A DNA stretch of 64,000 bases from an uncultured Thermococci archaeon (GCA_964549615.1 CAZJVP010000090.1:8107-72106); one strand, 5' to 3'; shown: positions 938-45,235, counted from the first letter of the stretch. The notes: generated by a model from the letters alone, not told the origin. Numbers and translations: made by a program.

Positions 938-2182
938 TTGCGGGTCCCGCTCCTGGGCTTGCTGGCAATGATCGCCCTCGCCACCGCCCTACCCCTCGTG
1001 CCGGCAGGGCAATATCCGACCGGGAAGCAGCTCGTCCTCGACTTCCTCATGGTCGGTGATGTCGACGGATGGGTGAACCACCTCGGCGACGACGAGCCTG
1101 CCATCACCATGACCTTGGTCCCCTGCAGGGCATTCGCCCTGGCCATGCCCGATGCGGACCTCTACAGGCTGAGTAGGGTCTACTTCCCCCGGACCAAGGA
1201 ACGGCTGTCCGAATTCGAGGTGCTCTTCTTCAACCACCCCAGGCTGAGCTTCTTCACGTTCCTTCAGCAGGAAATGATGGTGAACTTCGTTGCGACCAAG
1301 GGGAAGGTGTCGATCGCCTATCCGCTCAGCCACTATGAGGACGTGCAGGTCCCTTGGCTGAACAGCCCGCTCTGCAAGGCCTTCCCGGTCGATGCGGAGA
1401 GGTTCTATGCGGCCAAGACCTTGGGCCTGCCCGACGAGTTCCCGGGCTTCGCTGGCCTTGAGCTGGAGCTGGGTCGGCCCCCCGTTTTCAGCGTCTTCCA
1501 GCCGGCTGGCCTGTTTGGCGCCAAGATCTACGAAAAGGCAAGGCCCGCCTATGCGAAGGAGGGTGCAACGGTCTGGCTCACCATGACCGGCGGTCCGGCC
1601 AACGTCCCCAAGGCCCCTGCCTTCATTTCATGGCCCTACGGATCCTCCATCGCCTGGGCCTTCGGCCTGCACCCGGGAAGCCGGCTCAAGCACTGGACCG
1701 AGAAAGGGGATTGGTGGGAGCTGGCCTTCCTGAACGTCTGCATCTATACGATGGGCGAGGAGACGCTGAACTTCGATGAGCTCGTTGAGATGCGCTTGGT
1801 CAAGAGCCAGTTCGCGTTCTACCGTGGGCTCTCATCCATGTTTCAGAGCATCGTTGACTTCGTATCCACGATGGGCGCGAACACCGCCTTGGCGGAGCGA
1901 CTGCAGCTGGAGGCGGACGCGAGAAGGGCCATGGCCGAAGCCTATTACCTCTCAAGGGAGTTCGACCTTGCGAGCGAGGAGATGGAGGAAGCCTTGGAGG
2001 TTGCGCACCGGGCGACCGACGAGGCAACAAGGGCAAAGGAGCGTGCCTTGACCTGGATCTACCTCTCCGAGTGGCTCGCAACCGCTGCGGCTTCCCTGGT
2101 CTCAGCGCTGGCGGTGTGGGGGTTGATGATCAGGAGAAGGCTGTACAGAGAGGTGGGCACGACCCAGGCCAGGCACCTCTAG
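938..2182 (+). CDS. Paralog family member 1: signal peptide, R-x-Y-x-P-R-T domain and conserved C-terminal helix-TM-RRRLYR anchor module; function unknown
   Basis: 414-aa ORF. N-terminal signal-like sequence MRVPLLGLLAMIALATALPLVPA. Contains RVYFPRTKE. The C-terminus ALTWIYLSEWLATAAASLVSALAVWGLMIRRRLYREVGTTQARHL matches six other ORFs in the window. Confidence 0.75.
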   Translation: MRVPLLGLLAMIALATALPLVPAGQYPTGKQLVLDFLMVGDVDGWVNHLGDDEPAITMTLVPCRAFALAMPDADLYRLSRVYFPRTKERLSEFEVLFFNHPRLSFFTFLQQEMMVNFVATKGKVSIAYPLSHYEDVQVPWLNSPLCKAFPVDAERFYAAKTLGLPDEFPGFAGLELELGRPPVFSVFQPAGLFGAKIYEKARPAYAKEGATVWLTMTGGPANVPKAPAFISWPYGSSIAWAFGLHPGSRLKHWTEKGDWWELAFLNVCIYTMGEETLNFDELVEMRLVKSQFAFYRGLSSMFQSIVDFVSTMGANTALAERLQLEADARRAMAEAYYLSREFDLASEEMEEALEVAHRATDEATRAKERALTWIYLSEWLATAAASLVSALAVWGLMIRRRLYREVGTTQARHL

Positions 2183-2248
2183 AGGGAGGGACACCGCAGG
2201 GCCCATTGGCTGCGCACGATCCTGTCACCTGGCCCGTGGCCCGGTTTG

Positions 2249-3481
2249 CTACCTCGTTCTGAACTGGGTGGATGCTACCTGCCTGTACATGCGGCGCCGC
2301 ACCATCAGGCTCCACAGCACGAAGCCGCAGACAAGAAAGGTCGCGGTCACGGAAAGCCACTCCGACACGTAGACCCATAGCAGCGCCTCGTTCTTCACGC
2401 TCTCAGCTACCGATTCAGCATGATCCATCAGTTCCAACGCCCGTGCGGCCCGCTCCAAGGCCGCCTCGAAGTCCTGCTCGAGATAGAGGGTTGCGGCCTC
2501 GGCCTTGACGGAGTCCGCGTTCTGGAGCGCAAGGTAAACCTTCTTTGGATTTGCCCCGAACTTGTCAACGAAGTCTATGAGGGACGCAATGATTATCCTC
2601 CGGTAGGCGAAGGTGGCCATCCTGGTCCTCACCGTGTGCACCAGATCCAGGTCTACGGGTATTGGCCTCTTGGCGCAGTAGAGCATCAGGTTTGTTGCGA
2701 AATCGGGGAGGTACTCCCAGGTCAGAAAGACCGCCCCTCCTCCTGGCGTCCAGTCGCCGGTCATAGCAAATACCGTTCCGTTGCGGTACTCCCATGTTGA
2801 AAAGAAGGGATTCTCGTAGCCTTTGTGGAATCCAGCATCTATGGTAACGATCGCCAGCACCTGTGCGCCGGCCCTTGCTCTGACGATGTTGGAGTCGTAC
2901 CTGACCAGAAACGGAAGGTCCGGCCGCCAGGGGAGGCTCCTCATGAAGACATGCTCAGTGTCCAAGATCGTAACCTTGCCGCCCAGATACGATCCAGCCT
3001 CGGTGTCCACGGGCAAGACCTCACCGACCGGCGTGACCCCCCAGTCCATGTTGCCAGCTACCCCGCCGAAGGTCTCGTATCCGCCTATCATGACGAGCCC
3101 CAACCCCTCGGCCGCAACGGCGTCCCTGAACCACACGCGGTGCGCGGCGGTAAAGCTGTCGACGTTGGAGTCGCTTATGATGATCACGTCGTAGCTCTGC
3201 ACAAGCGACTCGTACGTCCTGGGCATATAGACGCGGATCGCCCTAATAATATCCTGCGCCGAGATCCCGGCGTAGTGGGCCCTTGAAGCCTGGACCGGCG
3301 TTACCTCAAGGAACGGTTCGGCCTTCATGTGGATGTACGGAGTTTGGCCCGGGTAGGGATCGCCTGTGTAGAGCACCCTCACCTTGGATGGCGTTTGGCC
3401 CGTCGCGAAAGGCAGGAGCAGAGATATGAGAAACATCACGAAGAGGGATGAGGCAACGCGTAGCATCGGCGTCCACCTCAA
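2249..3481 (-). CDS. Paralog family member 2 (secreted, C-terminally anchored; predicted flavodoxin/GATase1-like fold)
   Basis: 410 aa. Signal peptide MRWTPMLRVASSLFVMFLISLLLPFATG. Motifs RVLYTGDPYPGQTPY, RVYMPRTYE, YDVIIISDSNV, GLGLVMIGGYETFGG. C-terminus ALLWVYVSEWLSVTATFLVCGFVLWSLMVRRRMYRQV. A TATA-like tatttaag lies ~50 nt upstream. Confidence 0.8.
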   Translation of the reverse strand: MRWTPMLRVASSLFVMFLISLLLPFATGQTPSKVRVLYTGDPYPGQTPYIHMKAEPFLEVTPVQASRAHYAGISAQDIIRAIRVYMPRTYESLVQSYDVIIISDSNVDSFTAAHRVWFRDAVAAEGLGLVMIGGYETFGGVAGNMDWGVTPVGEVLPVDTEAGSYLGGKVTILDTEHVFMRSLPWRPDLPFLVRYDSNIVRARAGAQVLAIVTIDAGFHKGYENPFFSTWEYRNGTVFAMTGDWTPGGGAVFLTWEYLPDFATNLMLYCAKRPIPVDLDLVHTVRTRMATFAYRRIIIASLIDFVDKFGANPKKVYLALQNADSVKAEAATLYLEQDFEAALERAARALELMDHAESVAESVKNEALLWVYVSEWLSVTATFLVCGFVLWSLMVRRRMYRQVASTQFRTR

Positions 3482-3767
3482 GAGGTTGGGCGAGAGCGCC
3501 TTGGGCGTGTGCCCTACTTAAATAGCTTCGCTCAGAAACTCAGAAACCAAGAAACCGGTTCTCCCCAAAGCCGGATGTGGAGGCGCGATGCAGGGGACTG
3601 GCAATTCGGTAACCATGGCAAGGGTACAGACGATGTCAAAGTCTTGGCTGCCTCGGTGCAGATCCTTCATCGTGCCCAGGGATACGAAATATCAAGACTG
3701 TGCTGGAAGCCCGCGTTCTCGCGGCCGCCAGCCGACGAAAGGTGAAGGTAGCCTATGCTACGATCTT

Positions 3768-4184
3768 TCACTTGGGGAGCCATCCTGAGGTTCTCAGGAT
3801 CTCCTGAACCTTGCTGAGAACGAAGACCGCATCGCGATGCGCCTGTCTTGCCTCGCGTTCCCCATACAGTTTCTCGCCGTAGAAGGCAGGACCCCTCTCC
3901 TCACAGAGACGAGTGCACACCCAAGCCATCCTGTCCAGCATTTCCCGATCCACCTCCCCGATCTTCTTCCGCACGGCGTCTGCGAAGACCCTGCCGACGT
4001 CGTGGATCTTCGGGTACTCAACGCCCAAAACAGCAAGTCCTCCCTTCAAAGCAAGCTCGGCAACCTCCTGGGCGCGTCTTACCGCCATGCTGAAATCGCC
4101 TTCTCGCAGTGCACCCTCAAGGTCCCGCTTACAAAGCCTCTCTGCGCTTAGAAGGAGGTCCTGTCCTTTCTTGCGGTTGTTCAT
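3768..4184 (-). CDS. HEPN-domain protein (toxin component of a HEPN/MNT pair)
   Basis: Alpha-helical protein carrying an R-x4-6-H-like motif (REARQAHRD). The start is taken at M18 of the track ORF (MNNRKKG); its ATG overlaps the TGA of the upstream MNT gene in an ATGA arrangement. Confidence 0.65.
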   Translation of the reverse strand: MNNRKKGQDLLLSAERLCKRDLEGALREGDFSMAVRRAQEVAELALKGGLAVLGVEYPKIHDVGRVFADAVRKKIGEVDREMLDRMAWVCTRLCEERGPAFYGEKLYGEREARQAHRDAVFVLSKVQEILRTSGWLPK

Positions 4185-4747
4185 AAGCTGAATACCTCGC
4201 CGGGCTTTAGGTCTGGTTTCAGATCCCAGTACCATGTCCCGTCGTCCAGCCAGACCCTCTTCGACCCTAGCTGCCTGAGACGTTGCTTCACCTCCTCAAG
4301 CCTTTGGGCGAAGAAACCGCCGCGATCGTGGAGTATCCTTGCGTCCTCCACCATGTCCAGGTAGATGTACCTGTTCTCCCTTGCCTCCTTCATCGACAGG
4401 ATGAGGTAACTGATTCTGGGTTCGGTGCCCAGACTTCTCATCGATCTCCTGAACACATCCTCTTCGCGGAGGCGGGACTGTACATCGAGAACCCGGTCCA
4501 AACGGCGGTGATAGTTCCTAGCCGGGTTCCTGATTATCAACAGAAGGTCGATGTCGCTCTCAGGCTTTGCCACGCCTCTAGCCACGGAGCCGTACAGGAC
4601 GACGGAGACCAGGGATTCCCCCAGTGTCTCTTTCAGCAACTCCACGAGCTTCTCTAAGAGCTCGCTGTAGAATTCAAACCCGAGCATCTGGCCGTTCCTC
4701 GTCCTCCTCAAGGTTGCGCACCGCTTTGCCGGACCATGCGCAGACAT
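4181..4747 (-). CDS. Minimal nucleotidyltransferase (MNT, Pol-beta superfamily); antitoxin partner of HEPN
   Basis: The motif LVSVVLYGSVARGVAKPESDIDLLLII is the classic GS...D.D nucleotidyltransferase signature. Start is ambiguous: TTG at 4777, ATG at 4747 or ATG at 4687. Confidence 0.7.
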   Translation of the reverse strand: MSAHGPAKRCATLRRTRNGQMLGFEFYSELLEKLVELLKETLGESLVSVVLYGSVARGVAKPESDIDLLLIIRNPARNYHRRLDRVLDVQSRLREEDVFRRSMRSLGTEPRISYLILSMKEARENRYIYLDMVEDARILHDRGGFFAQRLEEVKQRLRQLGSKRVWLDDGTWYWDLKPDLKPGEVFSL

Positions 4748-5133
4748 GACGATGTGACTATACCAGCGCGCAAACAACGGTGAAGGACCTCTTAAAGCTT
4801 AGCTTGGTTCGGTTCCTTGGGCGAGGGCACCAAGTGGCGTGGGGATCCAGTTGCGGAGAATACTGTCCACAAGTTCCGGGAGGACACCGTCTCTGCATGT
4901 CCAAGTCTCGCGCACGCTACACATTTGGCAAAGGATCTTGCGGGGGACACAAGGAAGCGCCTTTGGCATCCCAAGCGCTCGAATGCCTCAGAATGAGGTT
5001 GTCAGGCCGTTTGTCGTTTTCTGGGATTCACGTGTTCTGGCGTGGGACGTAGCAGGCAATGTGGTTTTCCGCGACCGTTCGTTGGCCCAGTGGGGACAGC
5101 CAGATGGGCAGCTGGGGTTCGAAAACCACTCGC

Positions 5134-7299
5134 TTACTGGTCAGTCGAATTCCCCCGCCAGATCAGCTTAGCAGGGATGGCGTAGAGCTCGTCCACCCCC
5201 TCACGAAGGTAGAACGGTAGTTTCTCCTTGAGCCCGATCTCGCTAGTGTCGATGTCCTTGAAGCCCAACTTCAAGGCCGGCGACCCCGGCCTGAGGTGGA
5301 AGTTCCCGTTGGCGGGATCCACGAACATCGGATCCGCCACTATGCTGTGCTGATCGTACTTCCTGTCGAGGATGGTCAGCCATCTCTCCCAAGACCCATC
5401 TGCCGGGCCGCCGCTCACGGTAAGCGGGCCGTTTGGCTTCCAGATGAGGTTGTAATCCGAAACCGCGACCCTGGTGTCGTTCCAGTTGATGAAACCGTAC
5501 ACATCGCCCTTGGCCCCCTGGATGTAGATGATGTTTCTCAGGTATTCATGGCCCTGTGCCAGCTCGCCCGCCATCTCCATGCTCCTGATGGCCGCGGCGT
5601 TGCCGGGTGCCACGACGAGTATGTTGTTCTCTATCCTGTTCCCAACACCTTTGGTGAAGATGCATTGGTCGCCCCCTATTCCCATGACGTTGTAGATGAT
5701 GTTGTTTGTAACGGTGAAGTAGTCCGCCCCGTCATCAAGGTAAATGCCGCTCTGCAGGGTAAGCCTGTAGTTACCAACGTCATGGATCAGGTTATGATCG
5801 TACGTGTTGTCCCGCCCCGGCCCCCAGCATTCCATTGCCCCGGTATCCTGGCTGTCCAGATTCACATCGTGTATGTGGTTGTAGGCTATGAGGTTGTTGT
5901 GGGAGTAGAGATAGTCGTAATGGTTCTCTCGGGTTGCGCCCTCGATTCGCTTGATGATCTCGGTTGAGATCAAGCCCTTGATGGTCGTGCCGTACCGGGG
6001 CATGTGGTGGATCTCGTTGTGCAGGATCTTGTTGTGGCCGCTCTGCGAGATCTCAACGCCGTAGCCGTGGCCGACTAGGCACCCGCAGTGGTGTATGTGG
6101 TTGTTTTCCACGACGTTGTCATGGTTCACATCCGGCCCGCCGCCCACCCAGTATCCGGTCAGGGAGACGCCGTGCTGCCCATTGAACCGGATCAGGTTGC
6201 CGTAGACCACGATCCCTTGGGCGTGGTACGCTATCATCACCCCGTTGAGCCCCCCATTCTCTATCCGGCAGTACTTGACCGAGCAGTTCTCGGCCCCGCT
6301 TATTTCGACCACGTGCTTATTGCAGATGCCGAGCAAGAGGCCCTCGAGATGGACGTTCCTGACGGGTCTCTCGCTGGATCCCTTGATGAGAACCACATTA
6401 TCGGCGGTCGAGACCACCATCGTCTGATCCCCAATGGGTTCGCGGCTTGGCCAGCAGTAGACGTAGCCCTTGCTCAAGCTTATCTGGGCCTCGCCCGGAT
6501 CGTCAAGAAACGCAAGCACGTTCCTGATGAAGTAGCGATTGCCCGGCGTCATGTCGTAGCCAGAGGCGGTTCCCATGGTGATGATCCTAGCCTCCGGGTC
6601 GACGTCGACTATGGGTTTCTCGGCCGAGAACCAGTCGTGCCCGGGCCAGATGAAAACCCTAGCGTCGGCGAAGTCCAAGCCGCTCGGTTCCAGGTCGGTG
6701 GGCTGGTAGTAGAAGGCCGTCTTTTCCTGTCCTGGGACCGGCCCGGCGATCTTGAAGTAGTCCCATTCGGGCTTGCGCGCCAGTTCCATCCTCCGCCCGT
6801 TCTCGAAAACTTGGAGGGGTTTCGTCCCGTTGGGTATCGGCGCTCGCCAGATCCCGTGCTGGTGTGGGGCCCAGTCGGTTAACCTCAGCCCTCCAACCAG
6901 GCTAGGCGTCTCCGCCGGGTACGCGGCGTACGTTATCGAATGCTCCTCGGTACCCGAATCCTCGGGTCCCAATGCGAATCCCTCCGGAAGGTAGTAGGTA
7001 CCCCCTCTGACCAAGACCCTTACGTCCTTGGTCAGGTTTTCGGCGACGATTCTCCGAACCTCATCGCGGGCCCTCTGAAGGGTGGCGAAAGGCCCATCCG
7101 TCCTCGCGCGGTTCGGTGAAGGAAGCGTGCCTGACCATGAATCATTGCCGTTCGTTGCCACGTAGAAAGTCAACTCCGCCTGTTCCCTGCGCCTCAAAAT
7201 CATCGACCCGAATGCCAGTGCAACCAGCGCGATTAGGATCACTCCGGCTACCTCCCTTCTGGGCAACAACGACGATCCCGCCCTGCTGAAGACCTGCAT
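5134..7299 (-). CDS. Right-handed parallel beta-helix (pectate-lyase-like) repeat protein, N-terminally membrane anchored/secreted
   Basis: 721 aa. N-terminal TM segment, then FYVATNGNDSWSGT...PFATLQRA, as typical for PbH1 proteins. Many repeats of the type NNIIYNV / HDNVVENNHIHHCG / NLIHDVG. Confidence 0.7.
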   Translation of the reverse strand: MQVFSRAGSSLLPRREVAGVILIALVALAFGSMILRRREQAELTFYVATNGNDSWSGTLPSPNRARTDGPFATLQRARDEVRRIVAENLTKDVRVLVRGGTYYLPEGFALGPEDSGTEEHSITYAAYPAETPSLVGGLRLTDWAPHQHGIWRAPIPNGTKPLQVFENGRRMELARKPEWDYFKIAGPVPGQEKTAFYYQPTDLEPSGLDFADARVFIWPGHDWFSAEKPIVDVDPEARIITMGTASGYDMTPGNRYFIRNVLAFLDDPGEAQISLSKGYVYCWPSREPIGDQTMVVSTADNVVLIKGSSERPVRNVHLEGLLLGICNKHVVEISGAENCSVKYCRIENGGLNGVMIAYHAQGIVVYGNLIRFNGQHGVSLTGYWVGGGPDVNHDNVVENNHIHHCGCLVGHGYGVEISQSGHNKILHNEIHHMPRYGTTIKGLISTEIIKRIEGATRENHYDYLYSHNNLIAYNHIHDVNLDSQDTGAMECWGPGRDNTYDHNLIHDVGNYRLTLQSGIYLDDGADYFTVTNNIIYNVMGIGGDQCIFTKGVGNRIENNILVVAPGNAAAIRSMEMAGELAQGHEYLRNIIYIQGAKGDVYGFINWNDTRVAVSDYNLIWKPNGPLTVSGGPADGSWERWLTILDRKYDQHSIVADPMFVDPANGNFHLRPGSPALKLGFKDIDTSEIGLKEKLPFYLREGVDELYAIPAKLIWRGNSTDQ

Positions 7300-7468
7300 G
7301 GTTCCTCGATCGCATTGAATACTGTGACGGTCGCCTGTACCGGTTGGGAAATGCCGCTAATCATCCGACGATAATCGATCTACCGGCCACCGCGTCGGGT
7401 CGGCTCTGAAGCTGGACCGAGCGACCGAGCGAGAAACACATTATAGGTTTGGCCAGCGCTGCTTCAAC

Positions 7469-7675
7469 GTGGACAGCAAGTTCGGGCCGGCCGTACCGAT
7501 TGCGATATCGATCATCGGGGGCATCGGCTGGGTCGTCTTCATACTCCTGCATGCGTTCTTCTGGTCCGAGGGTTTCACGCTCTTCCAGAACATCGTCATC
7601 GGGATCGTCTCGCTGCTGATCGTGATCGCCATCCTGGGAGTCACCTGGGTAGTTTGGGCCCTGAGAGCGGCATGA
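7469..7675 (+). CDS. Small two-TM membrane protein (hypothetical)
   Basis: 68 aa, very hydrophobic (IAISIIGGIGWVVFILL...IVIGIVSLLIVIAILGV). A TATA-like acattatagg lies ~30 nt upstream. Supported only by hydrophobicity and context. Confidence 0.3.
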   Translation: MDSKFGPAVPIAISIIGGIGWVVFILLHAFFWSEGFTLFQNIVIGIVSLLIVIAILGVTWVVWALRAA

Positions 7676-7707
7676 CCCTCCTCAGCCACCCGTGTCTCTA
7701 ATCCCCG

Positions 7708-9117
7708 TCAGTACGGAAGGGTCGACTGAACCAGAACCGCTTCGGGCGGGGAGCATATGTGCAGCTCCTGACCGAGGTCAACCTCGCCGGTCCAGACGGG
7801 ACGAGGAAAACCTTCCAGATCGACCATCGTGTCCTTGCTGTAGAGGAATGCCTTCGTGTGCTGCCTTCCCGCGTCCGGGAGCTTGACGTTTACGTCGACT
7901 GGCTTTGGTCCGCGGTTGACCAAGCAGATGGACCAGGCCCTGCACCCGAATCCGGACGGAATGCTTGCGACAAGCAGCCGCCAGTCCTGGGAAGGTTGTT
8001 GCGTTCGATACGTGGCACACCCCTTCGGGAAATACCTCGACAGAAGCGACCAAGCATGGAACCAAGGCCGCAGTTTGAGTCCCTTCTCCTTGTTCGTCCA
8101 CATGCCCCAGTAGAAGCCGGGGTGCGAGTTGTCGTCCAGCATCCAGGCTGAGACGGCGCTAGCGCCTGCGCGGGCCGCCTGGACCGCGTAATCGGCCATG
8201 AAGAGGCCGTAGTCGTAACTGTCTATTCTCCGGTTGCCATAGGGATGATCCGCCTCGTCGTTAAGGCCCGCCTCGCCCACGACGAAGGGCTTCCCGCCCG
8301 ACTCAGGGTCGTTGGCCCGGATATACTCCAACTGTTGGCGGAGGTACCCCTCCAGCAAACCTGGGCGGACGACGTCATCGCGCTCGTAGCGGTGGATCTC
8401 GTAGGCGCCGAGCAAGATCCGAAGCTGATCCACCGAGTTGCGGAGCCATTCATCGGCGTTGGAGTGGTCCGGCCCCATGAGAGTGACCCGTTCGTCCAGG
8501 TGCCTTTCGGCGAAAACGCGCGCGACGTTCTCCAAGCCCGTCTTCCACCTATCCCAGTCCCCCACCTCGTAGTTGGGCTCGTTGACGAGGATGAAGTACT
8601 TGATGCAGCTGTAACCCCTCTGGTTCACCAGGTAGTCCATGTACGTGCCGATCGCCTCCGCATAGACCGGATCCGCGACATCCTTGACCCCAGGAATCCT
8701 AAGCCACTCCGGCTCGCAACCCCAGTCCGTGAGGAGGACGGTGATGCCCTCTCGCTGGCAGAGGTCGAGCTGTCGGTACAGCCTCTTCATCTCGGGGGTT
8801 TCCCAATCGAACTTTCCCTGCCCAAGGTAGCACCACTTGGTCTGCATCATGGACCTGACCACGGGCAGCCTCATCCATCGGATGCGATCGGCGATCAGTT
8901 CGAAGTCCTCGTCCGTCACCCCATGCTCGTCGTAGCCCCTGGAGTCCCACTCTGCGCCGAAGCCCAGAAAACTATCGCGGGAGACCAACTCCAACGCGAT
9001 CGAAGCTGGCCCGGCCTTGCCGCGCCTGGATGTCAGGCCAACTGAGCAGAGCCACGCAAGCGCCAACCCGCATGCTAGGCCCGCGCCCCATGCCACCCGC
9101 CTCAGCGTCGCTTGCAA
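7708..9117 (-). CDS. Secreted glycoside hydrolase, GH5-like (clan GH-A)
   Basis: Signal/TM N-terminus MQATLRRVAWGAGLACGLALAWLCSV. ILVNEPNYE carries the NEP acid/base motif and FVVGEAG the nucleophile motif, both typical of GH5-type TIM barrels. Confidence 0.6.
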   Translation of the reverse strand: MQATLRRVAWGAGLACGLALAWLCSVGLTSRRGKAGPASIALELVSRDSFLGFGAEWDSRGYDEHGVTDEDFELIADRIRWMRLPVVRSMMQTKWCYLGQGKFDWETPEMKRLYRQLDLCQREGITVLLTDWGCEPEWLRIPGVKDVADPVYAEAIGTYMDYLVNQRGYSCIKYFILVNEPNYEVGDWDRWKTGLENVARVFAERHLDERVTLMGPDHSNADEWLRNSVDQLRILLGAYEIHRYERDDVVRPGLLEGYLRQQLEYIRANDPESGGKPFVVGEAGLNDEADHPYGNRRIDSYDYGLFMADYAVQAARAGASAVSAWMLDDNSHPGFYWGMWTNKEKGLKLRPWFHAWSLLSRYFPKGCATYRTQQPSQDWRLLVASIPSGFGCRAWSICLVNRGPKPVDVNVKLPDAGRQHTKAFLYSKDTMVDLEGFPRPVWTGEVDLGQELHICSPPEAVLVQSTLPY

Positions 9118-9175
9118 CCTTGTTTCCTCCGGTGGAGATCACGAGGGCTCAGAGAGCATTGGCCGCGTCAGGAGG

Positions 9176-10375
9176 CTAACGCGCTCTTGTCACCTTGACC
9201 TCTCTGTACAGCCGCCTCCTGATCATCAGGGTCCACAACAGAGCCCCGCAGATCATGGCGGTTGCGGTCACCGCGAACCACTCAACCACGTAGGTCCATA
9301 GCAGCGCCCGCTCCTTGAGCGCCATCAACTGATCCGACAACGATCTGAACATCTCCTCGGTTTCCTGCAGCCTCGATAGCGCGTCAGGGTAGGCCTGCTC
9401 GAGGTAGAGCTGCTCGGCGTTCCTCTCCACAAGGCCAATCTCTACAAGGCTTCTCTCGGCGGGAGAAATCCGAGCGCCGAACTTCTCAACAAACTCCATC
9501 AGGCTAATCGCAAGCGCCCGCCTCGTGAAGTAATTGTGGAACCTCGTTCGGATGTCGTGCATGAGATCGAGGTCCTCGGGGATCTTTGCGCCAGCGTTGA
9601 GGAAGTTCATGTTGACCACGTAATCCGGGTAGAATCGCCAGTCATACATTACTGAAGTGCCCCACGCTGGCGTCCAATCCGGCGTGTGGGCGAGACCCGA
9701 ACCTTCCCCGTACTGCCAGTAGACCAGGACGGGGTGCTTTGGCTCGGCCGCCATCTGCAGGAGAATCTTGGCTCCCTCCTTGGGCTCAACGACGTTCATC
9801 CCGCCGAACGGCGGCATCGTGTTCCACGGCAGCGACCTAACGAAGGGGTCATCCGGATAGTTGGCCACCACCTTGAAGCTGATCTCGTAAGTCTTTCCAT
9901 CAACGCACTCCACAGGCAACGCCTCCTCTACGGACGAACCCTTCCATGTGGGATAGCCTTTCCCCCCGAAGGCCTCGATTCCCCCGACCATCATGAGGCC
10001 CATCCCCGTCTTCTCGACGCCGCGCTTGAACCACTCCAGCTGATCGGCCCTGTACAGCCCCCGGTTGGTATCGCTGAGAATGATCAGATCGTAGGAAGTG
10101 GTGAGGTCATCGAAGGTTCTCGGCATGTAAACCCTCATGAACTGGCGCAGCTGGCGATCGTTGTAGGTGCCTATGTGGGCATAGGTCGCGGGGATGGGCG
10201 TCCCGGTGAAGGACGGCTCCTCCATCATGTAGGTGTAGGGGGTTGGACCCCATGCATCGCCGATGTAGAGGATCCTGATCCTGTTGGTTACCGGATCCCT
10301 GCGGACATCGCGGCCGCATGCTCCTGGGATCTGGGCAGTTATCAAAACCAGGACAACAGCGCATGCGGCTCTCAT
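9176..10375 (-). CDS. Paralog family member 3
   Basis: RIRILYIGDAWGPTPYTYM, RVYMPRTFDD, YDLIILSDTN, GMGLMMVGGIEAFGG. C-terminus ALLWTYVVEWFAVTATAMICGALLWTLMIRRRLYREVKVTRAR. Start chosen at M44 of the track ORF (MRAACAVVLVLITAQIPGACG, signal peptide) because a ttttttatc TATA element lies ~30 nt upstream. Confidence 0.8.
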   Translation of the reverse strand: MRAACAVVLVLITAQIPGACGRDVRRDPVTNRIRILYIGDAWGPTPYTYMMEEPSFTGTPIPATYAHIGTYNDRQLRQFMRVYMPRTFDDLTTSYDLIILSDTNRGLYRADQLEWFKRGVEKTGMGLMMVGGIEAFGGKGYPTWKGSSVEEALPVECVDGKTYEISFKVVANYPDDPFVRSLPWNTMPPFGGMNVVEPKEGAKILLQMAAEPKHPVLVYWQYGEGSGLAHTPDWTPAWGTSVMYDWRFYPDYVVNMNFLNAGAKIPEDLDLMHDIRTRFHNYFTRRALAISLMEFVEKFGARISPAERSLVEIGLVERNAEQLYLEQAYPDALSRLQETEEMFRSLSDQLMALKERALLWTYVVEWFAVTATAMICGALLWTLMIRRRLYREVKVTRAR

Positions 10376-10500
10376 TCTGTAAGTACCGTTTCGGGCCCAC
10401 GATAAAAAACCTACGTTCCTGCCTGGAACTGCCCACCCGGACATCGTCGCGGCCGGCCTGTTGTCCAGACGCCACATCACTCCCCAACCGATCGAGACCT

Positions 10501-11400
10501 TCAACCTCGCCGAAGTCCCAGCAGTCTTACAGCATTCTCACGTGCTATCTTCCTAAAGACCCTCCTATCGATGTCCCCCGAGTCCTTCAACTCGAGCAGG
10601 AGATCAACCAACGGGGTTGGATTGTCCGGCGCACAGATGTCCAGGCCGAAGAGGAGCCGGTCCTCGAACTCGTTGAGGAAGCGCACGGCATTCTCCTTGT
10701 CCCTAGCAAGGGCATTGTAGCCGCTCCGCGCCGATAGATCCCCGTAGAGGTTTGGGTAACGCCTCATCAACCTCTGCACCGCGCCCTCCTGCCTGACTGG
10801 GTAGCTGGGATATCCCTTCCTATCCTCAGGCTTTCTAAGTCTGGCGATCTCGGCCCAGAACGGGGGCCCGTGGCCGAGGAAGATGAGATTAGGGAATGCC
10901 CTCAGGCAATGCTCAAGCTGCGGAAGTCCCGGTTCGTCGTACAGGCCGTATGCACAACCTATCCGCGTTGCCATGTCGAATGTTAGAGGCAAGCCAACAT
11001 TTTCGACCCACCTGAAGAGATTCTGCACCATCGGGTGCAGGAAGGGCATGTTGGGCATGACCTCGCCAACCCCCTTGCAACCGCAATCGCGGTAGTGCCT
11101 GAGCAGCTCACCGAGGGGAGCATCCACGGAATTGGTCATGGCGCGAGGATCCAGGTTGCAGAACGGGATGAAACGCCCGCCGGATGTTTCGGCGATCTCG
11201 AGTACTTCTTCGTTGGATTGGGGGAGGTAGACCTCGGGGCTGACCAGGGGCAGAAGGACGGCGCGCTCCACACCGATCGCGTCGTAGCGTTCAACCAACT
11301 GGCTGGGCGTGCAGAAGTTGCGCGGCCCAACTCGCCTGTAGGCATGGGCGTGGATATCGATGAACACCATCGTCCTCCCTCGCAGGCCCTTGGCTAACAA
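10501..11400 (-). CDS. Amidohydrolase-2 family metal-dependent TIM-barrel hydrolase
   Basis: MVFIDIHAHAY... is a His-x-His metal-binding start typical of PF04909-like amidohydrolases. Likely cytoplasmic. Start may be M11. Confidence 0.6.
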   Translation of the reverse strand: MLAKGLRGRTMVFIDIHAHAYRRVGPRNFCTPSQLVERYDAIGVERAVLLPLVSPEVYLPQSNEEVLEIAETSGGRFIPFCNLDPRAMTNSVDAPLGELLRHYRDCGCKGVGEVMPNMPFLHPMVQNLFRWVENVGLPLTFDMATRIGCAYGLYDEPGLPQLEHCLRAFPNLIFLGHGPPFWAEIARLRKPEDRKGYPSYPVRQEGAVQRLMRRYPNLYGDLSARSGYNALARDKENAVRFLNEFEDRLLFGLDICAPDNPTPLVDLLLELKDSGDIDRRVFRKIARENAVRLLGLRRG

Positions 11401-11609
11401 CCTCTAATAGTTTTGGCCGGCAAGACCTGCCGAGGCCTTCTGCAAGACGCCCGTGAGCCGCAGAACGATAGCCCTCACCCCGGCCGATCACCATCGAAGC
11501 ATGAAAGTCGACGGTCACGGCGTTTCGTCCACGGGACGGAGAACAACGCAGCTGCGGCCTTGCATCAAGCATGAGACCCGGCCGTCACGCCAGCCGTACG
11601 CCTAGCACA

Positions 11610-12812
11610 TCACTCAACCGCCCTCGTCATCCCAACCTCCCTGTAGAGGGCTCTCCTCACCATCAGCCACCAGACAAGTGTCCCCGCCATGGTGGCGGTG
11701 GCCGACACAACGCACCACTCCGCCACGTGCACCCACAGCAGTGCCTCCTTCTTGACCTTCATCATCTCCGCCTCCAGCACCGGATACTGTTTCAGCACGT
11801 CCTCGAGCATGTCGGCCGCGGCCACCGGGTCGTTGTCCGTGACGTAGGCCTCCCGTGCTTCCTTAACCTTCTCCTCCAAGGCATCGAACTTGCGCTCGAC
11901 GACGTTCACCTTCCCGCCGAAGCTCTCTATGAACTCCAACGTCGAAGCCGTGATGATCTTCCTGATCCTGGTCTCAACGAAGAGCTTCCTGGCCCTGTGC
12001 GCTGCGTCAAGATCCCCCGGCACCGGCTCGTCCGCGACGAAGAGCACCTGGTTGTAGACGAGATCCGGCCCGTACTCCCAGACCCTCACCTCATTCCGCA
12101 TGTTGTCCCAGCCGTGGTCTATCTGGAGGGTGTTCCCCCTGCCGAACTTCCCGGTCACGACGGCCGGCGTGCCCCTTCCTCTCCACTCGGCATCCACGAC
12201 GCTCCCGGGCCTGGGAAACAGGTCACCTTGGTGGCCCGAGTTTATCGGTATCTCCTCGATGCCAGGCAGGTTGAAGATCGGATCCCTCCTTAGAATCTTG
12301 TAGTATGTCCTGCCCTTGTTCGCCGGGATGTCGGTGGATAAGTCCACCTCGGCCGGGAAGGCCTGGTAGAGGGTTGTCTTCATCCACATGTCCATGTAGT
12401 TGGAGCCGGCGCCCCAGTTGGCAAATTCGATGAGTCCTAAGCCCAGGCCAACCTCCTCGACGGCCCGCCTGAAGTTCTGTATGTGGGAGCCTTCAAGCGC
12501 CAACGGGCCGAAATCTTCGAACATCATCGCGTCGTATCCCTCCGCAAGGGCCTTGAAGGTTCGAGGGATGTAGAGGCGCGTGAGCCTCTTTGCCTCGGAA
12601 AGCTGGATGTGCTGGGTCGAGCAGGGCACTATGGCCAGGTCGAACCTCGGCTCCGCGGCCAGCCAGTCAAGGAAAACCGTATTCCAGAAGTAGTACTCGC
12701 CAAGGAAAAGGACCCTTATCCGGCCCGTTCCGGGTTCCACGCGACAATCAACCGGCGAGAAGTTCACGGTTGCAAGAAGCAGAAGGAGAATGGTGCCGGT
12801 CCGAGAAAGCAC
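11610..12812 (-). CDS. Paralog family member 4 (divergent subgroup)
   Basis: Signal peptide MLSRTGTILLLLLATVNFSPVDC. GRIRVLFLGE, RLYIPRTFK, YDAMMFEDF, GLGLGLIEF. C-terminus ALLWVHVAEWCVVSATATMAGTLVWWLMVRRALYREVGMTRAVE. Confidence 0.75.
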   Translation of the reverse strand: MLSRTGTILLLLLATVNFSPVDCRVEPGTGRIRVLFLGEYYFWNTVFLDWLAAEPRFDLAIVPCSTQHIQLSEAKRLTRLYIPRTFKALAEGYDAMMFEDFGPLALEGSHIQNFRRAVEEVGLGLGLIEFANWGAGSNYMDMWMKTTLYQAFPAEVDLSTDIPANKGRTYYKILRRDPIFNLPGIEEIPINSGHQGDLFPRPGSVVDAEWRGRGTPAVVTGKFGRGNTLQIDHGWDNMRNEVRVWEYGPDLVYNQVLFVADEPVPGDLDAAHRARKLFVETRIRKIITASTLEFIESFGGKVNVVERKFDALEEKVKEAREAYVTDNDPVAAADMLEDVLKQYPVLEAEMMKVKKEALLWVHVAEWCVVSATATMAGTLVWWLMVRRALYREVGMTRAVE

Positions 12813-13211
12813 GGGCGGGGCTTGAGGCAGAGTAATTTATGGATTTCTTCGCCCTTGCTCATCGGCGGGGAATCTGAAGTAAGCTCCCTTCACCTGACGG
12901 TGCCCACCAAGCACGCACCTCGGACCGATGATTGATCCGGACCCTTTACCCGCGGTCCCTAGAATACCTTACGATCGCTTTGCCACATCGCCCGAAAGGG
13001 CCGATTCGCCGGACGCTGAATCGTGGCAAAATCCATGGATCTTTCGCGGCAACGAGACATGGAGGCAACCTAGCGCCGACGGCGGAATTGGTTTCCCAGG
13101 TCGTACGGTGGATCACAGGCGCGGATCCGTTTGCACTCACCAAACAAAATAAATGGGATGATGCCTAGCGCGTAAGCGATCCTTCAGCTCACCCAACACC
13201 CGGAGATCACA

Positions 13212-14456
13212 ATGAATTCAGGCGGTTCGGCCCACCTCGCGACAGGAAGGGATCTTTCCCTAGCCTCCCGGTGCGGGCTAGCTCTCATCACATTCGCGCT
13301 CCTCGCATCACCGTTTGTCACCCATTCAAGGACTGACCCCGACACGGGAAGGATAAGGGTCATCTTCCTCGGCGAAGTCAAGCCTGCGCAGTTCCCTTTC
13401 CCCTCTTGGATAGAGGCCGAGCCCAAGTTCACGCTGCGGCGCGTTCCATGCGACATAGAATGGTTCTCGGAAACTGATGCCCGTAGGTTCGCCCGCCTAT
13501 ATCTACCGAGGACCTATAAGGACCTAGTAGACCACTACGATGCCATCATCTTCGAGGACTTCACGCTGAGAATCCTTCCGGAAGGGACCTTGGAGAGGTT
13601 CCAGAAGGCCATAGGCGAGGATGGCCTTGGAATCGCCTTGGTCGAATACGTCTACTGGTCCGGCAACCTGAACGAGATCGACAGGTGGATGCAGTCAAGC
13701 TTTTACGATGTGTTTGCTGCGGATGTGGTCTTCGGGAGCGCCACCGACGTTGGGCGAAGGTTCTACGAGGTGTTGAGAAAGGAGCCCATCTTCGGCGTAC
13801 CTGATATCTCAAAATGGGCTATGAACGGCGCAAGCCACGGAGACCTCAGGGCAAGGGAGGGCGCAACCGTGGAAGCAATCTGGAGCCAGAGGAAGACGGA
13901 GGCCGTCGTCACGCGCAGCTACGGCAAGGGCTCGGTCATACAGATATCCCACGGTTGGGACAACATCCCGTCCGAAACCGTCATCGGGTATGAGTACCTT
14001 CCGGACCTGATCTTCAACGAGCTCTTCTTCACGGCAAAGGTTGCCCCTCCCGAGGACCTTGCCATGGTCCACACGATCAGGGTCGATCTCATCCAGATTG
14101 CCCAGAGAAGGGAGTCTGCGGTCGCGCTTCTGGATTTCGTTGACAGGTTCGGAGCGAACACTGCAAGGTTGGAGAGAATGCTTGGAGACCTTGACGGTGT
14201 GGTCAAGCAGGCGGAGAAGGATTATATCCTGTCAAGGTATGCCGAAGCACAGGAAGCCCTCCAACGGGCGACCGAGGGATACGCCCGGTTCTCCGATTCC
14301 GCGGTTGACCTGAAGAACCGTGCCATGCTTTGGATCTATGTCATCGAATGGATCACCGTTGCGGCTACCCTCATGATCTGCTTGGAAGCCGTCTGGATCC
14401 TCATGGTAAGGAGAAGGCTCTACAGGGCGGTGCACGTAACAAGGGCGGTCGGCTAG
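13212..14456 (+). CDS. Paralog family member 5 (divergent subgroup, pairs with member 4)
   Basis: GRIRVIFLGE, RLYLPRTYK, YDAIIFEDF. C-terminus AMLWIYVIEWITVAATLMICLEAVWILMVRRRLYRAVHVTRAVG. Divergently transcribed from member 4, with a shared 400-bp intergenic region. Confidence 0.75.
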   Translation: MNSGGSAHLATGRDLSLASRCGLALITFALLASPFVTHSRTDPDTGRIRVIFLGEVKPAQFPFPSWIEAEPKFTLRRVPCDIEWFSETDARRFARLYLPRTYKDLVDHYDAIIFEDFTLRILPEGTLERFQKAIGEDGLGIALVEYVYWSGNLNEIDRWMQSSFYDVFAADVVFGSATDVGRRFYEVLRKEPIFGVPDISKWAMNGASHGDLRAREGATVEAIWSQRKTEAVVTRSYGKGSVIQISHGWDNIPSETVIGYEYLPDLIFNELFFTAKVAPPEDLAMVHTIRVDLIQIAQRRESAVALLDFVDRFGANTARLERMLGDLDGVVKQAEKDYILSRYAEAQEALQRATEGYARFSDSAVDLKNRAMLWIYVIEWITVAATLMICLEAVWILMVRRRLYRAVHVTRAVG

Positions 14457-14491
14457 GCCCGTCGCCTGCCGAGAGGAAGCGACCAAAGCAC

Positions 14492-16048
14492 TCAACGTCT
14501 CTGCGTCACGCGCCCTGATGGGTTCGTCTCTTGCGCTCCAAGGCCTTCCACAGGCGAGGCCTCGTCCAACCATCGGTTCAGTTTCGCCTCGTGCTCGGCC
14601 GACCATCCAACGTAGCAGTTGGCCATTATCTCCTCGTAGGTGGTTGCCGGATTGTCAGCGGTTCGGCTGTAGCTGGCGTCGGAAAACTCGCCTGCCACGG
14701 CCCTCCTGCGCCACTCCCTGAACGCCTGTCGATTGTAAAGCATGCAGCGGCGGTGAACCTCCTCATAGTCCACGATCGCCCTGAGCTCCCGATCCATGGT
14801 CTCGACGACATCCCTTTTCGCGCTGCTCATGTTCCGGATCTCATCCGGGTCCTCGGCCAGGTTGAAGAGCTGGGGCGGGTAGCCTGGATATGCCACGTAC
14901 TTCCAGTCGCCCTTGCGCAGCATGAACATGGTGGTGTTTGTGGACTCGCCCGTGTGCAAGGCAAGCGCCCAGTTGCGGCTCTTCAGGGTTTCGCCTCGAG
15001 CCAGTGGCAAGAGAGATTCGCCGTCCAGGTTGCCTGGCGTCGGGAGACCGGCCATCTCGGCCACCGTGGGGAATATGTCTATCAAGGATACGATGTTATC
15101 GATCGTCCGACCCTTTATGACGCCTGGCCCAACTATGACCAGCGGCACTCGGGAGGAGCCCTCGTACATGCTCATCTTGTACCAGCTTCGGTGCTCCAGC
15201 GCAAGCTCGCCGTGGTCGCTTGTGAAGATGAAGTAGGTGTTGTCCCACAGGCCCAAGTCGTCCATCATCGCGACCATGTCGCCCACCATGGCATCCGCCT
15301 CGGCGCACATCGCGTAGTATGCCGCGCGGAAAACCTTCACGATCTCAGGCGCGAACCCGTGCCTCCAATTCTTGTTGATCCGCTGATACTCCATCACAGG
15401 GTGAACTTCCTCGTCCGCCGGAGGAACCCTAACCTCGTCAAGGTCAACCCGCTCCATCCAGTACGAGGTCGTGCGGTACGGTGGATGGACGGCGGACGTT
15501 GAGATGTAGAGGAAGAAAGGTTCCTCTCGACCCGCGTGAGCGGAGAGAAAATCCTTGGCCCTGGCGACCTTCTGCCAGTCTGCCTTCCAGGCGTTCCTCT
15601 CCTTCGTCGCGATGGAAAGATCCTGGTCTCCCCGACCGTAGACCGGCAGGCGGATGTCAGCCGGACCGGTCCACGCCGTGACGCGGGCGACGTGGCTGTG
15701 GCCGCCCGACCTATAGTCGCTCTTGCCCAGCCCTATGTCTCTATAGTCCTCCGCTGCGAAGCGGTAGCCCGCTTCGTGAAGCAGGTCCATCAGCGTCCTC
15801 TCGCCCGGCTCAAGCCCCTTATGGTTGTTCCAACTCTCGCAGTGATGGGTGTAGCGACCGGACCACATATTGGCCCGGGACGGGCAGCATAGGGGATGGC
15901 TACAGTAGGTGTGACGGAACAGCACGCCCCTGGAGGCAAGGGCATCGATGTTTGGGGTGGCACGACGCATGGCGGGATGTCCCATGCATCCAAGCGCCCG
16001 GCCGTCCCAGCTCTCTGCATGGAAGAACACGAAGTTCGGCCTCGGCAT
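14492..16048 (-). CDS. Cys-type sulfatase (formylglycine-dependent arylsulfatase family), apparently cytoplasmic
   Basis: The sulfatase signature C-x-P-x-R is present as LCCPSRANMWSGRY. Start chosen at M89 of the track ORF (MPRPNFVFFHAESWDG), which has the typical sulfatase N-terminus. A TATA-like element ~25 nt upstream suggests a leaderless mRNA. No signal peptide. Confidence 0.8.
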   Translation of the reverse strand: MPRPNFVFFHAESWDGRALGCMGHPAMRRATPNIDALASRGVLFRHTYCSHPLCCPSRANMWSGRYTHHCESWNNHKGLEPGERTLMDLLHEAGYRFAAEDYRDIGLGKSDYRSGGHSHVARVTAWTGPADIRLPVYGRGDQDLSIATKERNAWKADWQKVARAKDFLSAHAGREEPFFLYISTSAVHPPYRTTSYWMERVDLDEVRVPPADEEVHPVMEYQRINKNWRHGFAPEIVKVFRAAYYAMCAEADAMVGDMVAMMDDLGLWDNTYFIFTSDHGELALEHRSWYKMSMYEGSSRVPLVIVGPGVIKGRTIDNIVSLIDIFPTVAEMAGLPTPGNLDGESLLPLARGETLKSRNWALALHTGESTNTTMFMLRKGDWKYVAYPGYPPQLFNLAEDPDEIRNMSSAKRDVVETMDRELRAIVDYEEVHRRCMLYNRQAFREWRRRAVAGEFSDASYSRTADNPATTYEEIMANCYVGWSAEHEAKLNRWLDEASPVEGLGAQETNPSGRVTQRR

Positions 16049-16294
16049 CGGCTGCTGGGATTCCCTAGGGTGAAAAAATGTATGGTTCCACCCACGGCAA
16101 TGGCTCTTGGTTCCGCGGGAAAATGCTCGCATGAGGAAGCTCAAGAGTTCCGTGTCGCGCGTTGGTTGGCTCGCCGGCCTAGGGGAGGAGTGACCGGACT
16201 TTGCTCGCTCCGCCCAGCGGGTGCATCGGCCCCCGTCTTCCCGGGAAAGAGGAAAGAGGCCAAAGTTAAAAGGCACTTCGTCGTATGGTGGAGC

Positions 16295-17557
16295 ATGGCG
16301 CACAAGATGCAAGCTGCGCCTCCCCGGGCTATGAGGCAGGCCCTACGTCGAGTTGCGTTGTGCCTGCTGTTTCTAACAGTCCCAACGGCCTGGAGCCTGG
16401 AGGACGGCAGAATCGGGATGCTTTACGTGGGGTGCGTGGCGCGCTCCATGCCGTACTGGCTGATGAGGTCGGATCCACTCTTCCGAACAACCTTCGTCCA
16501 GGCGACGATCCGCGACTTCATGCTCTTCGGACCGATGCCGGCGCCGACCATTGAGGATCTGAACAGGCTGGTCAGGCTGTACATGCCCAGGACTTACGAC
16601 GACGTCGTGGCGAACTATGACGTCATCGTGTTCTTCGAGGCCAACGTCCAAGCTGTTGCGAATCACATAGACAAACTAGCCCGGGCCGTCTCCGAGGGAG
16701 GGCTCGGCATGGTTATGACCGGGGGCTGGCAGTCGTTCGGGGGCGCCACCGGCTACCCGCCGTGGGGCGTGACGGCGATCGGCCCGCTCCTCCCAACCGA
16801 GGACGTCGTTGGAGCTTGGCACGACTCCCCCCAGCACCGCATCATCATAGACAAACCGGACAATGAGTTCATCAGAAGCCTGCCCTGGGACCTCAGCGAC
16901 CCAGCCCTGTACGGCTCGGTATGGGACCACAACCTTCTCAAGGTGAGGCCAGGGGCCGAGCAGCTTGCGCACGTCGTCTCGCCCGGATGCGATGCCCCAC
17001 TGATGGTCACATGGAGGCTTGAGGGCGGCCCCAGGACCTTCTCCCTAGCGAGCGAGGGCGGCTGGCGGCTGTTCTCCATGGCGAAGTGGAGGTACGACTA
17101 CGATTTCTGCAGCAATCTGATGATCTACCTCGACGACCGGCCAGTCCCGCAGGACATCGCGCTCGTCCAAGCCGTCAGACACAAGATCTTCGAGGTGGCG
17201 ACCAGACGATCCATGATAGTGTCCCTGCTTGATTTTTGCGAGTCGTTTGGGGCGAACACGCAGAAGATTACGAGCAAGCTGATGGAGATCGACCGGGTGG
17301 CCGTCGAGGCCCTACCTCAGTATCTCCACCTCAACTTCGAGGGCGCGCTAGAGACCTACAAGACGGCGGCCAGGATGATCGAGAACCTTGAGGGCGAAGC
17401 CATGAAGCTTAAGGACAGGGCCCTCATGTGGATCTACGTCATCGAGTGGTTGGCCGTCACGGGCACCATGCTGGTATGCGGCATAGCGCTGTGGTCGCTG
17501 ATGGTTCGCCGAAGGCTGTACCGGCAGGTTCGATATACAAGGCTTGCAGCACGCTGA
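16295..17557 (+). CDS. Paralog family member 6
   Basis: The track ORF starting at 15896 is trimmed to MAHKMQAAPPRAMRQALRRVALCLLFLTVPTAWS (signal). RLYMPRTYDD, YDVIVFFEANV, GLGMVMTGGWQSFGG. C-terminus ALMWIYVIEWLAVTGTMLVCGIALWSLMVRRRLYRQVRYTRLAAR. TATA-like aaagttaaaagg ~25 nt upstream. Confidence 0.75.
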   Translation: MAHKMQAAPPRAMRQALRRVALCLLFLTVPTAWSLEDGRIGMLYVGCVARSMPYWLMRSDPLFRTTFVQATIRDFMLFGPMPAPTIEDLNRLVRLYMPRTYDDVVANYDVIVFFEANVQAVANHIDKLARAVSEGGLGMVMTGGWQSFGGATGYPPWGVTAIGPLLPTEDVVGAWHDSPQHRIIIDKPDNEFIRSLPWDLSDPALYGSVWDHNLLKVRPGAEQLAHVVSPGCDAPLMVTWRLEGGPRTFSLASEGGWRLFSMAKWRYDYDFCSNLMIYLDDRPVPQDIALVQAVRHKIFEVATRRSMIVSLLDFCESFGANTQKITSKLMEIDRVAVEALPQYLHLNFEGALETYKTAARMIENLEGEAMKLKDRALMWIYVIEWLAVTGTMLVCGIALWSLMVRRRLYRQVRYTRLAAR

Positions 17558-18494: not shown

Positions 18495-18624
18495 GTAGGC
18501 TTTCCTTATCAACGGATGGTTGGTCCATGGGTTTGCGGTAGCCTGAAATATTGCATTCTAGCGAAGCCTGGGGATCTTGTTGGGCGATGACCGGTCAGCC
18601 TGGAGACACCCGGACGATCGTGGA

Positions 18625-18698
18625 CGTTGGATGGGCGCAGACAGATGGACACATGGGCTCGGCAGATAGATGGTAGATGGGGTAGATGGTAGATGGGG
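18625..18698. repeat. Array of AGATGG hexamer repeats, including a perfect tandem (tagatggtagatgggg x2), in the divergent promoter region; candidate transcription-factor binding array
   Basis: Read directly: cagacAGATGGacacatgggctcggcAGATAGATGGtAGATGGggtAGATGGtAGATGGgg, followed by the TATA-like cttttat at ~18704. Confidence 0.5.
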
Positions 18699-18745
18699 AA
18701 AGTCTTTTATCCCGACCACATGACGCCGCGACCGGGCCAGGGCCC

Positions 18746-21453: not shown

Positions 21454-21480
21454 AACGGCACGACACTCCTTGATCAGGCG

Positions 21481-22389: not shown

Positions 22390-22626
22390 CCTCATTCGCC
22401 GCCTGAAAGGGTGGCAAGCCAGAAGCAACGGAACGAGTGCGGGGCCCCACTTCCCCAAGCCCTCTTCGCGGGCCTTCTCTTAGCGACTGGTCCGTGCCCG
22501 TCGTTGTCAATATCGTCCTTGACCTCAAGGTCCTGGGGGGTAGGGAGGGGAATGTGACGCCGGAAATCTTTTTCAACCGGGAAACGACTCAATCGGACGG
22601 CGCTAAGCGCCCCAGGAGAGGGTTTA

Positions 22627-45218: not shown

Positions 45219-45235
45219 GGTTTTCGGGTCAACCC

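Follow-up and report, generated by a model that had tools for sequence, protein, structure and literature searches.

Three members of the Pfam family PF07090 (GATase1_like, formerly DUF1355) have solved structures, namely STM3548 (2GK3), STM1381 (3SOZ) and the Planctomyces limnophilus protein 3RHT. These relatives are stand-alone proteins of ~250 amino acids (aa) that are named as cytoplasmic and possess no signal peptide, stalk or transmembrane (TM) helix. No activity has been demonstrated for any PF07090 member, and the solved structures bear generic names such as 'putative cytoplasmic protein'. Literature searches on PF07090/DUF1355 yielded next to nothing, and those on Hadarchaeota together with sulfatases nothing relevant. 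Structural relatives with an identity of only 6-12% are the GIFT-domain proteins OST48/Wbp1, IFT52 and GldG; such relatives are seen as modules for sugar binding or scaffolding, and Wbp1 is a non-catalytic subunit of the oligosaccharyltransferase (OST) (PMC7226087). Here, we analysed a stretch of 64,000 nucleotides from an uncultured Thermococci archaeon (GCA_964549615.1 CAZJVP010000090.1:8107-72106; the whole stretch is referred to as the window), which encodes seven paralogous proteins with a PF07090-type head. Compared with the solved members, the proteins of this archaeal family additionally possess a Sec signal, a three-helix stalk and a conserved C-terminal anchor, and the family reaches dozens of copies. 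As far as the literature searches show, no earlier description exists of the signal-head-stalk-anchor architecture, of its inheritance strictly as a unit or of its amplification to dozens of copies in an uncultured archaeal lineage.

An earlier reading of the window made from the sequence alone (the sequence-only reading) had listed seven related open reading frames (ORFs), and all of them are present at the positions given (Table 1). The seventh lies where it had been placed, but on the minus strand; its plus-strand translation is full of stops. A six-frame regular-expression scan for the C-terminal motif pair W.[YH][VL].EW ... RR.LYR detected seven occurrences in the 64 kb, on these ORFs only, and the copy number in the window is thus exactly seven. 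The longest ORFs of members 3 and 6 extend to 10504 and 15896, respectively, and the database gene call for member 3 (P0294, 442 aa) takes the 10504 start; the shorter starts chosen earlier yield canonical signal peptides in both members. The database protein P0001 is 99.75% identical to member 4 across 400 aa, and its gene sits on a Joint Genome Institute (JGI) contig, followed by the same amidohydrolase and by a PF07090 gene. All seven proteins align end to end (MAFFT), with the invariant patterns R..Y.PR in the head and W...EW...W.LM..R..YR.V..T at the C-terminus. The R-[VL]-Y-x-P-R-[TS] motif noticed earlier occurs in 7/7 members, and its R, Y, P and R are at least 80% conserved in an alignment of 95 family members, to which the residue frequencies below also refer. 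Pairwise identities bear out the division into three subgroups (members 2, 7, 3 and 6; members 4 and 5; member 1), as well as the stronger conservation of the C-terminal end: the last ~46 aligned columns show 43-65% pairwise identity among the seven, compared with 17-41% in the head (67% in the closest pair, 2/7).

At the Pfam gathering threshold of 27 bits, members 2 (60.6 bits), 3 (67.8 bits) and 7 (28.6 bits) match PF07090, member 6 (19.7 bits) remains under the cutoff, and members 1, 4 and 5 give no match. A profile of all seven matched the solved PF07090-type structures with E-values of 2e-14 (3soz), 3e-14 (2gk3) and 5e-10 (3rht), and these fit the head better than other GATase1-like families do. 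Head-only profiles, from which the signal peptide, stalk and anchor had been taken off, were compared with hhalign; subgroup 1 aligned to subgroup 2/3/6/7 with a probability of 99.9% (E 4e-32), and subgroup 4/5 did so with a probability of 100% (E 8e-52). AlphaFold2 models were obtained for member 2 (predicted local distance difference test, pLDDT, 91.5; predicted TM-score, pTM, 0.84) and for member 1 (pLDDT 91.2, pTM 0.82). Because the structure-profile matches, the head-only comparisons and the two models agree, one common head is present in all seven proteins, including the Pfam-negative members. The fold-prediction check that had been proposed for a flavodoxin/GATase1-like fold thus returned a GATase1-like (PF07090) head, and the earlier statement that the family is not a characterised one has to be withdrawn for a head that has a Pfam entry and three relatives with solved structures, albeit without a known function. 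The Pfam scan of the seven proteins gave no sequence match to PF03345 (DDOST_48kD; OST48/Wbp1). ThuA-like proteins (1T0B, 4E5V) and the middle domain of GH42 beta-galactosidases show no sequence-level similarity to the head, occur in another domain context and are not membrane anchored.

The order of elements is identical in the two models: an N-terminal hydrophobic helix, the alpha/beta domain (~31-270) and three helices. The first two stalk helices are modelled with ~30 and ~22 residues, and the third, with ~65 residues, runs unbroken through the hydrophobic segment. The sequence-only reading had described a signal peptide, a globular domain of ~300 aa, a ~60-aa helical linker and one TM helix. 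These elements and their order stand, but the domain comprises ~240 aa, and the linker is actually a helical region of ~125 aa with three helices, the last of which continues unbroken through the membrane. A Sec-type N-terminal hydrophobic segment is found in 92 of the 95 members. Lipoprotein anchoring was rejected, as no consistent lipobox exists among the 95 members; a Cys near the end of the hydrophobic region is present in only 46 of them and in an inconsistent context. OST48 carries a second lumenal domain where the archaeal family has the three-helix stalk and is single-copy, so that the likeness is best regarded as an analogy of architecture and not as family membership. SlaB of the Sulfolobales and tetrabrachion likewise combine a Sec signal, an extracellular head, a helical/coiled-coil stalk and a single C-terminal TM anchor; however, their head folds are unrelated, and they are single-copy surface-layer (S-layer) components, not 40-plus paralogs.

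The C-terminal module has the consensus K..AL.W.Y..EW - TM - W.LM.RRRLYR.V..TR and is conserved roughly twice as strongly as the head, the mean frequency of the commonest residue being 0.66 in the module versus 0.37 in the head. The W.Y..EW signature is followed by ~19 hydrophobic residues and by RRR, which lies 10-20 residues from the end; ~12 conserved residues are situated downstream of the Arg cluster. W0 and R27 are conserved in 100% of the members, W6 and M24 in 99% and E5 in 95%. Conservation peaks at the outer interface (K-6, A-3, L-2, W0, Y2, E5, W6) and at the inner interface and tail (W21, L23, M24, R26-R28, Y30, R31, T36, R37), whereas the TM core, with the exception of Gly17, is more variable. 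Weak Pfam/NCBIfam matches in the stalk/TM region (Alanine_zipper, CcmD, EzrA and others; E 0.007-0.5) are compositional and were dismissed. Among the window copies, the proportion of synonymous differences (pS) is 0.67 in the module (minimum 0.54) and 0.63 in the head, i.e., saturated in both, and that of non-synonymous differences (pN) is 0.32 in the module versus 0.52 in the head. Since pS is equally saturated and pN is lower in the module, the conservation of the module is due to purifying selection at the protein level, not to gene conversion or recency.

Searches with patterns back-translated from the C-module revealed 163 matching stretches in 185,579 species-representative genomes, 152 of which encode a relative and lie in three metagenome-assembled genomes (MAGs) of 'Candidatus Hadarchaeota'. 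All 78 loci that were retained belong to these MAGs, which carry at least 48, at least 42 and at least 12 module-bearing ORFs; these counts are lower bounds that cover the 78 retained loci only. The six copies in 17 kb, previously seen as a local amplification, are a slice of this genome-wide expansion. Adjacent copies in the window are only 28-38% identical and are therefore not recent tandem duplicates; window copies show at best 56% identity to the copies of those MAGs. The window is archaeal (PolD small subunit, tRNA-splicing endonuclease, CDC48 and DnaG are present), and, judging from these sequences, its organism appears to be a relative of the 'Candidatus Hadarchaeota' MAGs that itself stands outside the representative genomes. 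The family is sharply bounded and lineage-restricted to one uncultured archaeal group. The related MAGs also harbor decayed copies (Table 1), which are frameshift-split, multiply decayed or remnants. Some remnants of 62-96 aa keep the C-terminal module alone, and similar short ORFs on long contigs occur among the database proteins; such copies may be pseudogenes or assembly errors. The presence of frameshifted, decayed and remnant copies suggests birth-and-death evolution of the family.

Does the module occur on other proteins? In the 78 related loci and the window, it is found on 108 ORFs, the head on 110 and both on 105. Every ORF with the module or the head alone is clipped by a locus end, frameshift-split or a remnant, and the three module ORFs without a head consist of fragments or frameshift-split copies. 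When 1.84 billion representative proteins were searched exhaustively (HMMER) with the C-module profile, only 419 carriers were found at E<=1e-3 (381 at <=1e-10); among the best 150 of these 419, the full-length ones are all 381-468 aa long, with the module at the extreme C-terminus. A separate search of proteins with the C-module profile returned only fragments of 34-104 aa, which are silent on architecture. With a head-plus-stalk query, 64 proteins were obtained, 62 of which possess the module, the remaining two being truncated. Because it is absent from any other family in the locus-based, global and head-based searches, the module forms an integral element of these proteins and is private to the family wherever the architecture was checked.

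With moderate confidence, we interpret the family as type-I anchored, non-catalytic surface proteins of a glycan-degrading archaeon, with diversified PF07090 heads on a three-helix stalk and a conserved, family-private anchor that positions and probably docks them. The proteins would be exported by the Sec pathway with a signal peptide and become type-I single-pass membrane proteins; the head is predicted to lie outside and the tail inside because a Sec-type segment is present and the Arg cluster follows the TM helix. The extracellular non-catalytic head (GATase1-like, GIFT-like; ~240 aa) would stand atop an antiparallel three-helix stalk, whose ~65-residue third helix would cross the membrane unbroken, and a short Arg-rich cytoplasmic tail (~12-20 residues), acting as stop-transfer and positive-inside determinant, would end the protein. 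Head, stalk and anchor are inherited as a single unit, in which the heads have diverged to 20-40% identity over dozens of paralogs per genome and the anchor is kept near constant by purifying selection, mainly at both membrane interfaces (W.Y..EW outside, W.LM.RRRLYR inside). Probably, the module is also a docking element, through self-association or a shared membrane partner, and the family would then provide a range of alternative heads at the cell surface, all built on the same base. Most likely, the heads serve to bind or scaffold substrates outside the cell, for example glycans, a class of ligands proposed because the neighbouring genes are rich in sulfatases and glycosidases.

What is already known here is the head, which represents a widespread Pfam family of unknown function with solved structures. 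The context is new: the head is exported, stands on a stalk and is anchored in the membrane, and two related uncultured archaeal genomes, both rich in sulfatase and glycosidase genes, carry dozens of copies each. The family is likely a major cell-surface component in this lineage; it offers a handle on the role of PF07090/GIFT-like heads, namely binding or scaffolding instead of amidotransfer, and a clean case of an anchor under far stronger selection than its cargo domain.

Several observations weigh against this interpretation. No constant partner gene adjoins the family: in an all-against-all comparison of 436 non-family neighbour ORFs, the largest cluster comprised 11 ORFs in 10 loci, and the Pfam tally of the 121 immediate neighbours is heterogeneous. 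The Y and T..R residues of the cytoplasmic tail, which are near-invariant, are not accounted for by this reading. A packing interface on one conserved face of the helix was not supported for the module, where periodicity near 100 degrees is not significant (486/5000 shuffles reach the observed value) and conservation sits at the membrane interfaces and one Gly. The heads may also be enzymes with non-canonical residues (R83, Y85, R88, D260, E55), and the sequence data would allow C-terminal processing of the proteins, which may occur.

A further suggestion, which can be put forward only tentatively, is that the module serves as a plug, through which more than 40 alternative extracellular heads per cell would dock either into a homo-oligomeric array or into one membrane partner common to all. 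Loose analogies would be OST48, which docks into the OST complex, and specificity subunits that can be interchanged; if true, the arrangement would constitute a modular receptor or substrate-capture repertoire on the archaeal surface without a described counterpart.

It is unlikely that the family is a repertoire of extracellular enzymes, with heads that act as amidases, hydrolases or glycan-modifying enzymes through a non-canonical active site. Most proteins with a GATase1-like fold are enzymes, and the invariant R..Y.PR together with the other conserved head residues (D260, E55 and Trp residues) could make a site. However, a Cys-His-Glu triad with Cys at the nucleophile elbow after beta4 was not found in the heads of the 95 members, where no Cys or His reaches 40% conservation, the elbow positions vary among G/R/S/V, and no conserved Cys, His or Ser nucleophile is present; a catalytic class I glutamine amidotransferase was rejected on the absence of the triad. 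Nor does any PF07090 member have a demonstrated activity, and in OST48/Wbp1, IFT52 and GH42-type glycosidases, the fold forms the GIFT or middle (Glyco_hydro_42M) domain and no named catalytic domain. Plasmid-borne bacterial PF07090 homologs carry the annotation 'glutamine amidotransferase'. One of them, a stand-alone homolog of ~257 aa on a Roseomonas plasmid (NZ_CP061178.1 42351-43124), lies in an operon with a LacI regulator, a BtpA/SgcQ protein, a PfkB sugar kinase and an ABC transporter. This carbohydrate-catabolic setting speaks for an enzyme and hints at a carbohydrate-related role for the cytoplasmic PF07090 branch.

Quite unlikely, too, is a variable cell-surface coat that evades viruses or predators or mediates cell-cell recognition without substrate capture. 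Dozens of diversified ectodomains on a constant anchor, pseudogenes indicating birth-and-death evolution and the structural matches to the stalk, which include parasite surface proteins with a stalked three-helix bundle, are in line with such a coat. Against it, each window copy has an A/T-rich promoter-like element (recognised by eye), and orthologs are 50-84% identical between genomes, which together suggest stable, individually maintained functions; moreover, no switching or recombination machinery is evident.

The sequence-only reading had seen in the module a dedicated sorting signal, distinct from the PGF-CTERM/archaeosortase signal, and had set recurrence of the motif outside the family, genome-wide, as the test. 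That an archaeosortase-, exosortase- or rhombosortase-like enzyme cleaves the module and attaches the protein to lipid or the cell wall is, in our view, improbable. The module does resemble sortase-type signals (PGF-CTERM/ArtA, PEP-CTERM/exosortase, GlyGly-CTERM/rhombosortase, LPXTG) in its extreme C-terminal position and tripartite layout of motif, hydrophobic helix and basic cluster, and it is far better conserved than the remainder of the protein. Known sorting signals, however, mark many unrelated proteins in each genome, whereas this module is confined to one family, and no recurrence outside it was found in the 78 loci and the window. A Pro/Gly turn is typical of the LPXTG, PEP, PGF and GlyGly motifs; the signature of the module has none and lies midway in one continuous predicted helix of 65 residues, with ~12 conserved residues beyond the Arg cluster. 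The curated NCBIfam models of C-terminal sorting domains (PGF-CTERM, PEF-CTERM, VPXXXP-CTERM, GlyGly-CTERM etc.) gave no match in the seven proteins at E<=1, which agrees with the earlier view that this is not the PGF-CTERM/archaeosortase signal, and Pfam scans of ~40 larger ORFs of the window detected no exosortase/archaeosortase or rhomboid family and no sortase-like gene. The tempting idea of a new sorting signal is corrected accordingly. Finally, conserved 3' ends created by gene conversion, concerted evolution or recent duplication, as in the recombination cassettes of variable surface families elsewhere, would fit many clustered paralogs with a common conserved end but have next to no chance of being correct and were ruled out for the window copies by the saturated synonymous sites, the module nucleotide identity of at most 67% and the low identity of adjacent copies.

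Table 1 Family members and C-terminal modules in the window (nucleotide positions unless marked aa) and decayed copies in related loci
Feature	Position	Strand	Remarks
Member 1	938-2182	+	414 aa, TTG start; most divergent subgroup; no Pfam match, fold and architecture as in the others
Member 2	2249-3481	-	410 aa; signal peptide aa 1-~28; alpha/beta head aa 31-270
Member 2, stalk helices	aa 278-307, 313-334, 338-403		last helix includes the TM segment
Member 3	9176-10375	-	399 aa from ATG; PF07090 E 1.5e-18
Member 4	11610-12812	-	400 aa, GTG start; subgroup 4/5
Member 5	13212-14456	+	414 aa; subgroup 4/5
Member 6	16295-17557	+	420 aa from the ATG here; PF07090 E 7e-4, under gathering cutoff
Member 7	37133-38374	-	413 aa; 59% identity to member 2; PF07090 E 1.3e-6
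C-terminal module, member 1	2027-2179	+	juxtamembrane W.Y..EW, TM helix, RRRLYR tail
C-terminal module, member 2	2252-2404	-	
C-terminal module, member 3	9179-9325	-	
C-terminal module, member 4	11613-11762	-	
C-terminal module, member 5	14304-14453	+	
C-terminal module, member 6	17402-17554	+	
C-terminal module, member 7	37136-37309	-	FQRALYR variant, longer tail
Decayed copy	L034 4952-5771	-	
Decayed copy	L003 2974-4228	+	
Decayed copy	L002 2794-4185	+	
Decayed copy	L053 5762-5947	-	
Decayed copy	L017 4472-4759	-	

Inspection by eye of the DNA upstream of the seven starts, which is otherwise ~60% GC, revealed a separate A/T-rich TATA-like element 30-60 nt before each of them (for example, TTTATCC, TATTTAAG, TTTTTTATC and ATAAATTA). 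Their presence suggests that each window copy may be transcribed independently from its own archaeal promoter. The elements agree with the shorter start codons of members 3 and 6.

Among the immediate neighbours in the related loci, sulfatases are the commonest (5/121); others are GFO/IDH/MocA oxidoreductases, xylose-isomerase-like TIM barrels, DUF4838 and FG-GAP proteins. In the window, glycan-degradation genes are located at 5134-7299 (minus strand), 14492-16312 (minus), 43092-46840 (minus), 48454-54732 and 58538-63275. They encode a right-handed beta-helix protein, a sulfatase, GH42-like, LamG and melibiase-like proteins, two BNR/sialidase-like proteins, a DUF6259/GH66-like protein together with a major facilitator superfamily (MFS) transporter, and a 3-keto-disaccharide hydrolase (DUF1080). 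Such a dense set of glycan-degradation genes is unusual for an archaeon; the repertoire resembles that of Planctomycetes and Verrucomicrobia. A 469-aa ORF at 7708-9117 (minus) has an N-terminal hydrophobic segment and no Pfam match; a clan GH-A-like 'LVNEPN' acid/base motif (NEP) and a later 'VVGEAG' were recognised in it by eye, and it may be an unannotated glycoside hydrolase.

Other genes of the window are of various kinds. Between members 2 and 3, a HEPN-domain ORF (3768-4235) and a nucleotidyltransferase-domain ORF (4181-4777) form a minus-strand pair at 3768-4777 that looks like a HEPN/MNT-type toxin-antitoxin system. Directly 3' of member 6, a nucleoside-salvage cluster (17628-23823) comprises genes for an inosine-uridine nucleoside hydrolase, an ABC ATPase, two permeases and a Bmp/PnrA-type binding protein. 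The tRNA-intron endonuclease ORF at 33357-34568 (minus) encodes 403 aa, in which one N-domain and one catalytic domain were detected; a single-unit archaeal enzyme of this type is expected at roughly half of this length, and the protein may be a duplicated or fused form.

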